Notes under the pieces: generated by a model | Told to the model about the DNA's origin: nothing | The model's input: only the letters and a program-made list of their open reading frames with translations | Databases searched by the model: none | Part shown: positions 16,006 through 29,752 of the stretch, piece by piece | How the letters are laid out: every line of letters starts with the position of its first letter | Position numbering within the stretch: the stretch's first letter is position 1 | From: a phage | Sequence record: PZ338878.1 | Length of the DNA: 64,000 nt | Direction: 5' to 3' (one strand) | Made by a program: the position numbers and the translations under genes

Positions 16006-16224
16006 TATTTTGAAAATTTTTATTTTTATAAAAAGGGGTGTGGGTTTCATGTACGGAAATCCACCCTCTGAATAATATATCCAGAGTAAATATTATTCTG
16101 TACTCTGTTAATAAAGTATTTAATTTGTTTGTTGGACTATGGTATCTGATCTTTAAAAGACATACTATCTCTTAACTACTACTTATAACAGAACAGTAAA
16201 ATCATTTTTATAAAAAGGACAAAA

Positions 16225-16425
16225 TTATTTAAAGTTTTTACAGATTTTTGGCTACAAATTTTGAAAATGAAAAGTTCAAGTTTGGTCAAAATTATTTAAA
16301 GTTTTTGTATGTATTTCTATCCAGATTTTGAAAATGAAAACTTCAATTTTTTAAAAATTCCCCAGTTTATTTAAAGTTTTTTTGCCTTTTTCCGTAGAAA
16401 AATCAAAAATGAAAAGTTCAATTTC
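16225..16425. repeat. three tandem ~70-bp direct repeats
   Basis: TTATTTAAAGTTTTT at 16225, 16291, 16367; TTTTGAAAATGAAAAGTTCAA at 16258, 16325, 16401. Confidence 0.7.
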
Positions 16426-16444
16426 GTGTTTTTATAGGTGTGTT

Positions 16445-16557
16445 AATGAGAATCATTTTCGTTTGTAAATGAGAATCATTATCATTTAACTATGTAAGTG
16501 ATAATCATTCTCAGTAAGAGAATGAGAATCATTAGCAAATGAGAATTTTTCTCATTT
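16445..16557. promoter_or_regulatory. array of Fur-box-like hexamer repeats
   Basis: AATGAGAATCATTATCATT, GTGATAATCATTCTC, AATGAGAATCATT close to Fur consensus GATAATGATAATCATTATC. Confidence 0.45.
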
Positions 16558-16818
16558 ACAGAATAACGCGCAGGGGCGGTGTTTGTCTCGCGCTCCCGTG
16601 TCCCCTCGCCATACAATAAGAATAGCATAACCAACAACAAAAGCAAGCGATTATTTTTATCTTTACATTTCTTTACAAATTTATTTTAGACGAGCTACCG
16701 GCGATCAACCTTCCAACCAGGGCCGCCTGGTATGTTAGCCCCGCCTTTACGCCGTGGGGGTGGCGTTTCCTCTTCTGTATGTAAAACAGTATAAGCCCGA
16801 TCCCTGGGCTTGTCAATA

Positions 16819-26479: not shown

Positions 26480-26716
26480 ATGAAAGAAGTCATGATCCTC
26501 AAAAAATCACCTATTTTACGTGGTGGCTTTATCGCTTACTCTGATGATCTGTTAATTGCAACGGTTGCAAAAATACTAAAATCAGAAGAGGATAGTAAAA
26601 ACGGCGTTTATCGTATCTGTTTCACCCGTGGAAAATTACAAGGCAAGATCGCTTATGCTTTTGATTTACAAGATGTAAATGATAAAATCTGCGCTGTTAT
26701 TGATTATGCAAAATAA
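26480..26716 (+). CDS. hypothetical protein (78 aa)
   Basis: RBS AGGAAAAAGAAG. Confidence 0.5.
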   Translation: MKEVMILKKSPILRGGFIAYSDDLLIATVAKILKSEEDSKNGVYRICFTRGKLQGKIAYAFDLQDVNDKICAVIDYAK

Positions 26717-26728
26717 TTAACTTTCTTA

Positions 26729-26760
26729 TTGACACCGGATCACGCTTACATTATTATTTA
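26729..26760 (+). promoter_or_regulatory. sigma70-type promoter (hairpin absent or degenerate)
   Basis: TTGACA ... TATTAT. Confidence 0.45.
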
Positions 26761-26803
26761 TCACGTAGGGCAAATCATTTTAAACGGTAAACGAGGAAAC
26801 ACC

Positions 26804-27187
26804 ATGAGCAATATCATCAACCTGGCGGCTACTGTAAACGGCAAAGACTTTAACGGCGCTGTAGACCGTGATCCTATGTGGTGCTTATCAGTGTTCAAAG
26901 GTGACTTGGTTGAAGTTAGAACAACCGAAGGTTATAGCGACGATTATAAATGCGAGATCCATTTACATAACTGGTACACGGGTAAAACTTATGCGCTGAA
27001 TCACGCGTTTATCGGGAAAATTGAATATCGCGAAATGATCGACGAAGAAACGGGGCAAGATTTTAGCGATTATGTTTATATTCGTTCCGAAACATTAGCC
27101 GAACGGTTGATCGAGAAAATGAAAGCAAAAAATAAAATTAATTTAGCTCATTGGCTTGATATAACAAACGATCCAGCTTATAAGTAA
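26804..27187 (+). CDS. hypothetical protein (127 aa)
   Basis: start at ATG 26804 with GAGGAAA RBS. Confidence 0.5.
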   Translation: MSNIINLAATVNGKDFNGAVDRDPMWCLSVFKGDLVEVRTTEGYSDDYKCEIHLHNWYTGKTYALNHAFIGKIEYREMIDEETGQDFSDYVYIRSETLAERLIEKMKAKNKINLAHWLDITNDPAYK

Positions 27188-27202
27188 ATAACATTTCACA
27201 CC

Positions 27203-27221
27203 AGGGCGCACAAAGCGCCCT
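27203..27221 (+). terminator. rho-independent terminator closing the small-gene array
   Basis: AGGGCGC-ACAAA-GCGCCCT + TTCTTTTT. Confidence 0.7.
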
Positions 27222-27433
27222 TTCTTTTTACCTAAATAAAGATGATAGCTTTTACCTATCAAAAACGTTCACCGAAAAAAGTGAATAGATCGCGGTATCG
27301 AGCTAATCAAGGAGCAGATGAACAACCATACCATGAAGATCATAAGGCGTTTACAACGTGTTTTAGACCGCTTATTTTTAATTTCTCCATGTAACTATCT
27401 GGCAAAAACAGCCTTTTTCTTGTCTTTCCTCTT

Positions 27434-27508
27434 AAATGATAATCATTCTTATTTATAGCTGATTATTTATGCAATAAACTGCATAATGCAATAATGATAA
27501 TCATTCTT
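27434..27508. promoter_or_regulatory. two Fur-box-like sites
   Basis: AAATGATAATCATTCTT and AATAATGATAATCATTCTT. Confidence 0.4.
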
Positions 27509-27517
27509 AACTTATGA

Positions 27518-27800
27518 CCATCTAACCTATAAAATAATAAGCTATCTAACTAAATTAAAACTAATTATCTCACCTTTATTTATAATTTACTGTTATTATC
27601 TCATTGATAACCTTATATTAAACAACAATAACTAATATAAATCATTACTAAGCTAAATATAATCTATCTAACCTTTAAAACTATAACTATAATCTATCGA
27701 ATTGTTGCACAAAGTAACTATTAAATTGTTAGTAACATTACTAAATAATTAATATCCTATCTATTTATGATCTAATCTTTACCTTACTATCTATTACCTA
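27518..27800. repeat. iteron-like short repeats in AT-rich non-coding DNA
   Basis: recurrent CTATCTAAC(C/T) / CTATCTATT motifs. Confidence 0.4.
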
Positions 27801-27859
27801 AATAATCATTTCATACCGTAATAATTTCATATAATAATTATAACAAGAAATATAATTAG

Positions 27860-28045
27860 CAAGCGTATCATTAGCAGCCTATGCCGGACACATAGGCGGC
27901 TAATAATAACGCAACTACACACCTCACATAATAACTATCACCGATAGTTATTATCTGTGCTTATGTAGCTTGCAACAATTGCAAGCGCAACAATATACAT
28001 GGTATATTGTATTCCCTTACATTGTTGCGGTGCGTTATTATTAGC
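27860..28045. repeat. cluster of nested palindromes
   Basis: GCCTATG-N7-CATAGGC; ATAACTATC-ACC-GATAGTTAT; GCTTGCAA-CAA-TTGCAAGC; CAATATAC-ATG-GTATATTG; flanking GCTAATAATAACGCA inverted repeats. Confidence 0.6.
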
Positions 28046-28420
28046 TAATGTTTGGAACATTGGCTATAATATAAGCTACCCAATAATAAGTTATGCAATA
28101 ATAAACATAGTGAATAATTACCCTGATGATCATAATGCGCCACCTTCCAGGGGCGCTATGTGAACACAAAGAAATCTTTCTTGTCAAGAAAAATATTACC
28201 ATTATTGCGCAAAATTATTTATATATGAATAGACGGTTTTTCATACTATTGCCCCCCCCAAATTATGCCCCTTTTGTTGGGTACAACTATCCCTATTTGT
28301 TGCAATGTATACCTTATTTGTTGAGCATAGTTATAGCCTATTTGTTGAGCCTACTTTCTTAAAAGCGCAATAAATTAGAATTATCTTGATTTTTAGGGCG
28401 TTTTATAGTATAGAAAATAT

Positions 28421-28439
28421 GCAAATGATAATCATTATC
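28421..28439. promoter_or_regulatory. near-consensus Fur box
   Basis: GCAAATGATAATCATTATC vs consensus GATAATGATAATCATTATC. Confidence 0.5.
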
Positions 28440-28606
28440 AGCTATCTTCCACGGGTAGCACTATTTCACGCAGGATCATTTCATTTGGCAAGGTGTATAT
28501 AGATGTTTAGAAATGCCAAGCCATTGATTTGCTTAGAATTTATCTGTTTTGTTGGGAATAGTGCCTTTATTGTCCAGAAAATAATCAAAAGTCTTATAAG
28601 TCATTG

Positions 28607-28640
28607 AATGATAATGCAAATGATAATAATTCTCATTGAT
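28607..28640. promoter_or_regulatory. Fur-box-like repeat
   Basis: GAATGATAATGCAAATGATAATAATTCTCATTGAT. Confidence 0.4.
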
Positions 28641-28691
28641 ATTTGAGGGGGACGGTCGGCAGAAATCGGGGGGCGCTGAAAATCGCGTTAA

Positions 28692-28758
28692 NNNNNNNNN
28701 NNNNNNNNNNNNNNNNNNNNNNNNNNNNNNNNNNNNNNNNNNNNNNNNNNNNNNNNNN
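28692..28758. other. assembly gap (67 N)
   Basis: run of N in sequence. Confidence 1.
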
Positions 28759-29076
28759 AGGGGGTGTGTCGAAATAAATCGGGTATACCGGAAAATTTTT
28801 GTGGCATAGATATTTATTTGTCTATATTATGTACAAAGGGGTGTGTTAAAAATAATAGGTATATATAGAATAATTGATAGGGAAATCCTATACTAAATCC
28901 TTCATTAATGATGTTTCTATGTGGCTGTCCTTGTAACAGATGAAAAGACGCTGTATGATGTGTGAAAGACAGAATCAAAGATGCAAATAATACTTGCATT
29001 GAATAGAAATGTCTGTACACTGTGTTCCATATAATATGCAATACCGCGCATAACAAACTACTAATGAGAGGTGTAA

Positions 29077-29535
29077 ATGAAAACTGTATCTTTGTATCTT
29101 GCTAACACGGAGCGTGTACATAATCTGGTAAAAGAATGCGGTGTGAGTGTTCAATTTAACACAGGAAAGCCTTCCGTGGTGACAGGCAGCGAGATGTGTG
29201 TTATTGATTTCATCAATGAATATTTTCGTGGAAAACCTATCGCTCGGCACTTCATTCAAGAAATGCGAGATGTAGAGCAGGATTATGAATTCTACCCAGA
29301 AATTTGTGAACGTTATGAAACAATTCTTAGTTCTGTAGAAGATCCAGATACTAGTGAAACAGGTGCTTCCCACTTACTGTGGATGTTGAGTGAAATTCAG
29401 GATGGGTGTAATGGTATGTCTGAAACCAAACGCCATCGTTGGTTAGGCTATATTCAGGGTGTTATGGTTATGAAAAACCTTATTACAGTGAACGATGAAC
29501 GTAATGCTACACGCCCCGTCTTTAATGGAGCATAA
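29077..29535 (+). CDS. hypothetical protein (152 aa)
   Basis: RBS GAGAGG. Confidence 0.55.
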   Translation: MKTVSLYLANTERVHNLVKECGVSVQFNTGKPSVVTGSEMCVIDFINEYFRGKPIARHFIQEMRDVEQDYEFYPEICERYETILSSVEDPDTSETGASHLLWMLSEIQDGCNGMSETKRHRWLGYIQGVMVMKNLITVNDERNATRPVFNGA

Positions 29536-29536
29536 C

Positions 29537-29752
29537 ATGAAAAGCATTAGGGTGTGTATTGAAAATAATTGTGGCTATCTGGGGTTGACACACGTCACTT
29601 TCCCTCTTATATTAGATGCCGATATAGCTTACAGCGGAGTTGCTTATGTGTCATTCAAGACAATGAGCCAAGTACCTGGCTGGAATTGGGAAGTGGTTGA
29701 TGTTGTTGAAGGAGAAGATTATGTTTTCCTTCCACACGAATATACTGTTTAA
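29537..29752 (+). CDS. hypothetical protein (71 aa)
   Basis: start at ATG 29537 (MKSIRVC). Confidence 0.45.
   Translation: MKSIRVCIENNCGYLGLTHVTFPLILDADIAYSGVAYVSFKTMSQVPGWNWEVVDVVEGEDYVFLPHEYTV

Follow-up and report, generated by a model that had tools for sequence, protein, structure and literature searches.

The phage DNA analyzed here (sequence record PZ338878.1) is a stretch of 64,000 nucleotides, hereafter the window, and our subject is a long gene-free region within it. A first reading of the letters, made without database searches (the original prediction), had flagged 1.5 kb of this region, up to a run of N, as AT-rich, non-coding, and dense in palindromes and iteron-like repeats, and had proposed a replication origin, a packaging or terminal-repeat boundary, or a regulatory hub. 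Matches to the flagged stretch, at 90–97% identity, were found in 67 phage records, 48 of which align across 80% or more of it; nearly all of the 67 belong to the genus Justusliebigvirus (phi92-like myoviruses, subfamily Stephanstirmvirinae), and the window is that of a phi92-like E. coli myovirus of this genus. In phi92 itself, gp248 (Gp30.8-like) is the last gene, with its end at 147159, and gp001, beginning at 699, is the first; a 343-bp repeat occupies both 148270–148612 and 1–343. The homologue of gp248 lies at 26729–27187 of the window and that of gp001 starts with the ATG at 29077; the gene-free region runs from the stop codon of the one to the start codon of the other (27188–29076). 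With a GC content of 0.30–0.32, as compared to ∼0.37 for the window, the flagged stretch is indeed AT-rich, and it is indeed non-coding, but its size was underestimated, as the gene-free span measures 1.89 kb. A search for related loci with the gp248-like protein returned only one locus, the tblastn matches being mostly unrelated homologues of T4 gp30.8.

Two of the matches, those to phi92 and Salmonella phage UAB_1, reach the end of the record, inside an annotated "right end direct terminal repeat." When the window was aligned to a phi92 "junction," in which the right end and the left end were joined with one copy of the repeat, the 343-bp direct terminal repeat (DTR) of phi92 fell at 28348–28690. 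Published papers describe Stephanstirmvirinae genomes as terminating in DTRs (317 bp in a Klebsiella member), and repeats of 343 bp are annotated in both phi92 and UAB_1; the paper on phage BME3 gives 342 bp, and the last bases of its record are ...ATCGCGTT. BI-EHEC, a member of the sister genus Phapecoctavirus, has an exact 328-bp repeat at both record ends, which starts with AGCATCTTCTC straight after TGTTG and finishes with ...TTCGCGTT (...CGCGTT). In an alignment of 12 genomes (Justusliebigvirus, Phapecoctavirus, two Klebsiella phages, and Citrobacter phage Tr1), the repeat is edged by invariant motifs, TGTTG^AGC on the left and CGCGTT(A)^AGCAC on the right, with GTTR^AGC common to both cut sites, and the recorded ends of phi92, UAB_1, BME3, and BI-EHEC all fall at these motifs. 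Placed by homology to these four phages, the left physical end of the studied phage would begin AGCCTACTTTC, and the right would lie at ...AAAATCGCGTT(A).

The DTR is present only once in the window, and the assembly is therefore a permuted and collapsed representation of the genome, in which the two DTR copies have been merged into one. The region shares with the DTRs of phi92 and other Stephanstirmvirinae (FR775895.2, OL656106.1, and PP239276.1) a sequence identity of 91–97%, the cut-site motifs, the flanking genes, and a repeat length of 342/343 bp; it differs in carrying a single collapsed copy within a permuted assembly and in having 67 bases given as N. A longer repeat, of 459 bp, has been placed in the non-coding region of rV5-like phages. 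It is thus firmly supported that the region is the concatemer junction, or genome-end region, of a phage that packages by DTR, which is a known kind of feature. Of the roles originally proposed, that of a packaging or terminal-repeat boundary is borne out, with the DTR and both cut sites present by homology, and a collapsed terminal repeat junction explains the odd gene-free region without any assembly problem having to be invoked.

As in T7-type junctions, the short DTR has short direct-repeat arrays at both of its edges (Table 1). The last copy of the YTATTTGTTG array on the left bears the left cut site itself, and the copy number of the TTTGTTGAGC unit by this edge differs among close relatives (1 to 4). 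The GGGG..GT..AAA units surrounding the right edge occur nowhere else in the window. These repeats, and not the recurrent CTATCTAAC motifs that had been likened to iterons, are the genuine direct repeats of the region: with at most one mismatch, CTATCTAAC matches the window 21 times where 16.7 matches are expected, three of them at 27518–27672, within the AT-rich tract, and the motif is not conserved outside the genus. It remains at chance level and forms no set of at least three regularly spaced, conserved direct repeats as iterons would. If T7-type phages are a guide, terminase would most likely recognize the TTTGTTGAGC and GGGGTGTGT repeats beside the DTR and cleave at GTTR^AGC. At the equivalent of position 28085, another short repeat was observed whose number differs between near-identical phages, with TAATAAGCTATCCAA present in 3 copies in phage alia.

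The run of N, whose coordinates and length (67) had been given correctly, is the sole such run in the window. In four close relatives, the bases corresponding to 28691 and 28759 align exactly 68 apart, leaving 67 bases between them, and phi92 has 68 bases at this place. At this place the relatives carry GCACCTCTCGCAAGCGAGCAGTATTTTGCGGCAAGTTATTGATATTATTGACTTTACGCTTATGAAA, a unique sequence that hardly differs from one to another and is conserved in part throughout the subfamily; it begins 1–2 nt past the right DTR edge, and the flanks of the run are collinear with the relatives at ∼95% identity on both sides. Because a collapsed repeat would have lost homologous length, whereas here the length is kept, the N run represents masking or no-calls over ordinary, unique sequence, and ∼67 bases resembling GCACCTCTCGCAAGCGAG... 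are to be expected in its place. The earlier suggestion that the gap reflects repeats that confounded assembly is therefore judged to be wrong. A wider form of the same idea, that the N run hides a collapsed repeat or misjoin and that the region is a chimeric junction, draws on the fact that the run begins just beyond the right DTR edge, where read coverage changes; set against the matching length and near identity of the relatives, the collinear flanks, and an identical order of elements across the region in more than 45 independent genomes, we regard it as very improbable. The closeness of the N-run start to that edge (28689/28690) may be coincidence, a boundary coverage effect, or deliberate masking.

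Table 1. Features in and near the gene-free region, with positions in the window.
Feature	Position	Strand	Basis or remark
Intrinsic terminator of the upstream (right-end) gene cluster, GGGCGC-loop-GCGCCC plus T run	27203–27231	+	Kept in all subfamily relatives
Conserved block past the terminator, with inverted repeat TGATAG-N7-CTATCA (27243–27261)	27243–27310	none	∼70–78% identity to distant relatives
Doubtful 46-codon open reading frame	27318–27458	+	AAGGAG Shine-Dalgarno site 3 nt upstream of ATG
Fur-type operator 1	27432–27451	+	Conserved across the alignment
Promoter-like CTGATT-17-CATAAT	27463–27491	+	Between operators 1 and 2; read by inspection, not by a tool
Inverted repeat TTATGCA-N6-TGCATAA	27467–27486	+	Between operators 1 and 2; conserved
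Fur-type operator 2	27490–27509	+	3 mismatches (27490–27508); partly conserved
AT-rich, G-depleted 340-bp tract	27510–27850	+	80% A+T (A.42, C.16, G.04, T.38); between operator 2 and hairpin element
Conserved multi-hairpin element (∼170 nt)	27877–28045	none	Folding and covariation
P0 hairpin	27877–27897		
P1 closing stem	27899–27913/28031–28045		15-nt perfect inverted repeat
P1b stem	27915–27918/27965–27968		
P2	27925–27959		
P3	27969–27985		Within invariant GTAGCTTGCAA-NNN-TTGCAAGCG
P4	27986–28029		
Array of 3–4 copies of YTATTTGTTG(AGC), period 21–24 bp	28271–28347	+	Adjoins left DTR edge
DTR (342/343 bp), single collapsed copy	28348–28689/90	none	Homology to DTRs with recorded ends
Fur-type operator 3, in DTR	28421–28440	+	2 mismatches (28421–28439), 17/19 of GATAATGATAATCATTATC; TGATAAT-C-ATTATCA perfect, 7-1-7 core at 28426–28440
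Fur-type operator 4, in DTR	28616–28635	+	Conserved across the subfamily
Three GGGG(N3)GT(Y)(R)AAA-type repeats (GGGGTGTGT)	28648–28669, 28761–28782, 28838–28859	+	Surround right DTR edge
67 N	28692–28758	none	Sole N run in the window
Left-end leader upstream of the first gene (ATG 29077), with conserved block 28838–28898 and promoter-like site 28846–28874	28838–29076	+	Alignment, consensus match
Second cluster, five tandem Fur-type boxes TGAGAAT-N-ATTnTCA	16442–16560	none	In gene-free gap 16006–16818

The palindrome cluster that had been noted, with its bracketing inverted repeats of ∼15 bp, exists and folds beyond what shuffled sequences do. A 192-nt segment, compared to dinucleotide shuffles, gave z scores of −6.8 as + strand RNA, −7.9 as − strand RNA, and −8.4 as DNA, with a fold in which the small hairpin P0 is followed by a four-way junction closed by the 15-bp P1 stem and containing P1b, P2, P3, and P4. 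GenBank phages, IMG/VR, and metagenomes together supplied 26 different homologous sequences. When metagenome and genome collections were scanned for the pattern, 7 true relatives came up, along with 4 chance matches (L026, L029, L035, and L036), which were dropped. Covariation was scored on 40 well-aligned pairs of the MAFFT alignment, excluding P4 and the outer part of P2, where distant sequences were out of register. Across the 26 sequences, 98.3% of cells at these pairs were paired, and 10 of the 40 pairs had changed on both sides, in 68 cells. The covariation score was 0.182, as compared to 0.057 ± 0.007 in shuffles (none of 500 as high) and to at most 0.024 when the partners were slid by 1–3 columns. 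Four versions of P1 were seen, with the two arms complementary in each (AACGCA/TGCGTT, AAGCCA/TGGCTT, ACCGCA/TGCGGT, and AACACA/TGTGTT), and P0 and P2 likewise show matched changes. Folded individually, every sequence formed P0, P1, and P2, and all but three formed P1b. In P3 (GCTTGCAA-NNN-TTGCAAGC), the arms are invariant and the loop varies.

The mismatches that do occur are not symmetric with respect to strand. Apart from one sequence (L015) whose P2 is out of register in the alignment, there are 13 non-Watson-Crick cells, at 4 independent positions, and all are A·C on the + strand, i.e., G·T or G·U on the − strand; no in-register G·T was found on the + strand. This hints that the − strand is the folding strand (p about 0.06) and speaks against a simple palindrome bound by a protein and against a cruciform formed symmetrically by both strands. 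Multi-hairpin modules lacking detectable homology to the element, each followed a few hundred bp downstream by Fur-like boxes, occupy the equivalent non-coding region in Klebsiella phage FBKp34 (L018 4168–4345 and 4577–4732; 27-nt closing inverted repeat, z = −10.0) and in the Enterobacter Certrevirus F1M1E of the Vequintavirinae (L038 5800–5935 and 6182–6324; 18-nt closing repeat, z = −9.1), which suggests that the architecture of the module is conserved and not its sequence alone. The element appears to be undescribed and is maintained by compensatory substitutions. An identical copy of the phiWec190 element was seen in a record labeled "Pseudomonas phage PsgM04F" (OR584014), whose host label looks doubtful.

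The Fur-box-like sites of the original prediction proved to be four real sites, far above chance and conserved to differing degrees across the subfamily. All four contain AATGATAATCATT with at most one mismatch. Allowing up to three mismatches, the Fur consensus matches the window 6 times where 0.06 matches are expected; under a first-order model of the local AT-rich composition, 0.004–0.05 are expected per region, and none of 3000 simulations reached the observed counts. The TGATAAT-C-ATTATCA layout at the core of operator 3 is the 7-1-7 form of the Fur box. This operator is conserved in the E. coli and Citrobacter relatives and lost in the Klebsiella phages, and operator 4 is absent from Tr1 but matches the consensus at 17 of 19 positions in phiWec190. 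The gene-free gap at 16006–16818, between the homologues of gp223 (+) and gp224 (−), holds a second, tandem cluster of such boxes, which are the only feature common to this gap and the terminal region. No Fur-type boxes occur in the next 50 kb of phi92, so that within the 114 kb examined they are confined to the two non-coding regions, and conserved copies are present in phages of Escherichia, Klebsiella, Citrobacter, and Enterobacter that belong to two subfamilies.

With up to 17 of 19 matches to GATAATGATAATCATTATC, a perfect 7-1-7 core (TGATAATnATTATCA-type), and tandem spacings of 23–29 or 58 bp, the sites resemble enterobacterial Fur operators. Unlike these, they lie in gene-free regions of a virulent phage, partly in its terminal repeat, and not upstream of iron-uptake genes, and the phage consensus leans toward TGAGAAT-N-ATTCTCA. 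Host Fur is most likely the protein that would bind them; a phage regulator of the same palindromic specificity may do so instead. The regulatory hub that had been proposed is plausible, with conserved Fur-type operators flanking promoter-like elements; the consensus promoter matches near the Fur-type sites are weak. Clustered Fur sites have been reported in E. coli (PMC2189734). A literature search for Fur boxes in these phages found no paper, the sole mention, in a paper on phAPEC8-like isolates, concerning the lambdoid sitABCD, and the conserved operator clusters appear to be undescribed. Neither the hairpin element nor the Fur-type operators are in Rfam or described in the papers searched, and the records of phi92-type phages annotate the repeat only, with no feature for the Fur-type sites, for the hairpins, or for the array of cut-site repeats.

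The elements of the region follow one another in this order: first the terminator, then two Fur-type operators with a promoter-like element between them, the G-poor AT-rich tract, the hairpin element, the cut-site array, the DTR with its two operators, the 67 N, the GGGGTGTGT repeats, and, before the first left-end gene, its leader. We put at about 0.72 the probability that this is the genome-end (concatemer-junction) region of a phi92-like myovirus, with two DTR copies collapsed, and that it works along the following lines. DTRs serve both replication and packaging (PMC4283147). Replicated genomes would join into concatemers via the DTR, and terminase would recognize the short repeats flanking it and cut at GTTR^AGC on each side; strand-displacement synthesis like that of T7-type phages would duplicate the DTR. 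The hairpin cluster, which occurs once per genome ∼300 bp inside the right end, may act as a single-stranded DNA structure in the replication or processing of the ends. The − strand would be the likelier one to fold, all non-Watson-Crick cells being G·T there, and if a 3′ end invaded at the repeat and synthesis proceeded leftward, the − strand would be displaced first, matching the wobble bias. The 7-1-7 operators would bind host Fur, or a phage protein of like specificity, and control local promoters.

The model for this scheme is the T7 and T3 junction, for which Dunn and Studier in 1983 and Chung, Nardone, and Hinkle in 1990 reportedly described a short DTR flanked by short-repeat arrays, and an inverted repeat left of the junction that is said to have been proposed as a hairpin priming repeat duplication. 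The region studied here resembles that junction in its short DTR, in the direct repeats adjoining both edges, and in a hairpin-forming cluster a few hundred bp inside the right end, and relatives such as rV5 have a T7-type primase-helicase and a PolA-type polymerase. It differs in showing no sequence homology, in belonging to a myovirus without a phage RNA polymerase, and in having a 170-nt multi-helix structure rather than a simple inverted repeat. In the primosome sites of G4 and phiX174, the ssi elements of plasmids, and the hairpin promoters of phage N4, only one strand is active, and only when it is single-stranded. These signals are clusters of DNA hairpins with short (3-nt) loops, a form that fits the strand-biased wobble and the covariation seen here; they share no sequence similarity with the element, however, and the 15-bp long-range closing stem is found only in the latter. 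A single-strand DNA signal, used as the end region is copied or processed, would be the most economical role for the module.

Several points weigh against this reading. The window holds one DTR copy, and the ends of the studied phage are placed by homology only; the terminase-recognition role of the repeats is argued from T7-type phages, and that of the hairpin element is likewise an analogy, no hairpin intermediate having been reported for this group. The unvarying arms of P3 would equally fit a protein-binding palindrome, the strand bias amounts to 4 events, and binding by Fur is a prediction. Promoter consensus matches in the region (19, as compared to 12.5 ± 3.2 expected) are barely above chance, and consensus-based promoter assignment was convincing on neither strand.

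The main alternatives concern what the structured and AT-rich parts of the region do. A replication origin primed by transcription is a live, if doubtful, alternative that would be compatible with a genome terminus: the promoter at ∼27463–27491 would fire into the AT-rich tract and cause an R-loop or unwinding, and the displaced strand, through its hairpin cluster, would then offer a signal for priming or for loading a helicase, a logic that may be likened to the transcription-primed origins of T7 and T4 and to ColE1 with its primosome assembly site. The tract is as rich in A+T as an unwinding element would be, and its G-poor, A-rich composition, but not its sequence, is kept in all relatives; a conserved promoter-like element and operators lie upstream of it, and an element selected for single-strand folding lies 380–550 nt downstream. 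In the related rV5, which uses the T7-type primase-helicase and PolA-type polymerase, the origin could not be located, and its published genome map has a "non-coding" box. Against an origin, 27188–29076 contains none of the 13 DnaA boxes (TTWTNCACA) of the window, and no origin-like enrichment was seen there for Chi, for GATC density, or for IHF sites, of which one candidate was found. The CTATCTAAC repeats are not above chance, the turns in GC skew within the window track gene orientation, and the promoter is a consensus-level match. In addition, the wobble favors the − strand, which is the template and not the displaced strand for a rightward transcript. As to the tract itself, rightward transcription would yield an RNA without structure whose C/G ratio is high, much as in Rho-loading sequences, and C would be nearly absent from a transcript made leftward or from the single-stranded − strand.

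Alternatively, the hairpin element may function as RNA rather than as DNA, either as the gene of a structured non-coding RNA or within a longer leader transcript. The covariation of four helices, one of them the 15-bp long-range closing stem, the four-way-junction architecture, and a wobble of the G·U type on the − strand all suit an RNA. However, an Rfam 15 scan of 26500–29600 on both strands found no match at E values up to 1, and a scan of the whole window with Rfam 15 at gathering score and one for tRNA/tmRNA (ARAGORN) gave none either; no intrinsic terminator and no convincing conserved promoter flanks the element on either strand, and three of the hairpins have 3-nt loops and are near-perfect DNA palindromes. 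A literature search found no transcriptomes of this phage group. We consider an RNA a live but rather unlikely alternative. It is possible, though we hold it only tentatively, that the region has an iron-linked regulatory or decoy function, which would again be compatible with a terminus. About nine Fur-type operators, two of which lie in the DTR and so occur twice per virion genome, would bind host Fur, and either local phage promoters would respond to iron or the amplified genome would titrate Fur and de-repress host iron uptake. Multicopy Fur boxes do titrate Fur, as in the Fur titration assay, and the closeness of the sites to the consensus, their conservation in phages of four host genera, and their restriction to two non-coding regions favor this view. 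On the other side, Fur binding is predicted, the sites would be accounted for equally well by a dimeric regulator that the phage itself encodes and that has a similar palindrome (TGAGAAT-N-ATTCTCA), and these phages plate well on iron-replete media, which makes strong Fur repression of essential promoters unlikely. Rather improbable, in our judgment, is a combined reading, in which a strand-specific multi-hairpin DNA (or RNA) required for replicating or processing the genome end and true Fur operators would form a control module coupled to host iron and common to the Stephanstirmvirinae and Vequintavirinae. Were it true, the operators would gate end replication or processing and nearby early transcription by iron status or, alternatively, serve as a Fur sponge that de-represses host iron uptake during genome amplification.

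A further comparison is offered by the injection-stop-signal region of T5, a large untranslated terminal stretch with repeats, palindromes, and ordered DnaA boxes (Davison, bioRxiv 10.1101/866236). Both belong to virulent coliphages, and both are large, conserved, untranslated genome ends with repeats, inverted repeats, palindromes, and boxes for host-type proteins. In T5, the boxes are DnaA boxes within a 10-kb terminal repeat, and injection proceeds in two steps with the A1 and A2 proteins; here, the boxes are of the Fur type, most of the region lies outside the 343-bp repeat, and the group is not known to inject its DNA in two steps. With no ordered DnaA boxes in the terminal repeat, the region lacks the defining feature of a T5-type injection stop signal.

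The original prediction was thus partly confirmed. Phages of the phi92-like, phAPEC8-like, and rV5-like groups infect a broad range of hosts and are favored as therapy candidates. Three cis elements that can be mutated emerge from our analysis, namely the covarying hairpin module, the cut-site repeats, and the Fur-type operators. Should Fur really bind the latter, the phage would offer a rare example of strict virulence combined with a tie to the iron regulon of the host.

The statement that the region holds no credible open reading frame (ORF) is essentially right, as all of 27188–29076 is non-coding but for one doubtful case. Four small ORFs, at 27999–28163 (+), 28126–28362 (+), 28041–28202 (−), and 27938–28060 (−), were rejected, being broken by stops or frameshifts in close relatives. 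The remaining 46-codon ORF is intact in all eight Justusliebigvirus copies and is not annotated in phi92. In codons 1–23, all three changes are synonymous, and codons 24–46 have 10 non-synonymous and 3 synonymous changes; at the corresponding place in Phapecoctavirus and the Klebsiella phages, there is no start codon and stops are present, and a PHROG search gave no match. This ORF is therefore specific to the genus, and its coding status is doubtful.

Two further observations were made in passing. The gap at 16006–16818 also contains 2–3 copies of a ∼67-nt direct repeat (16220–16430), and its GC-rich part (16555–16700) is not unusually structured. Among the records matching the terminal region, several are labeled "Campylobacter phage" (MG065639, MG065645, and others) and share ∼95% identity with the window here; these host labels look doubtful.

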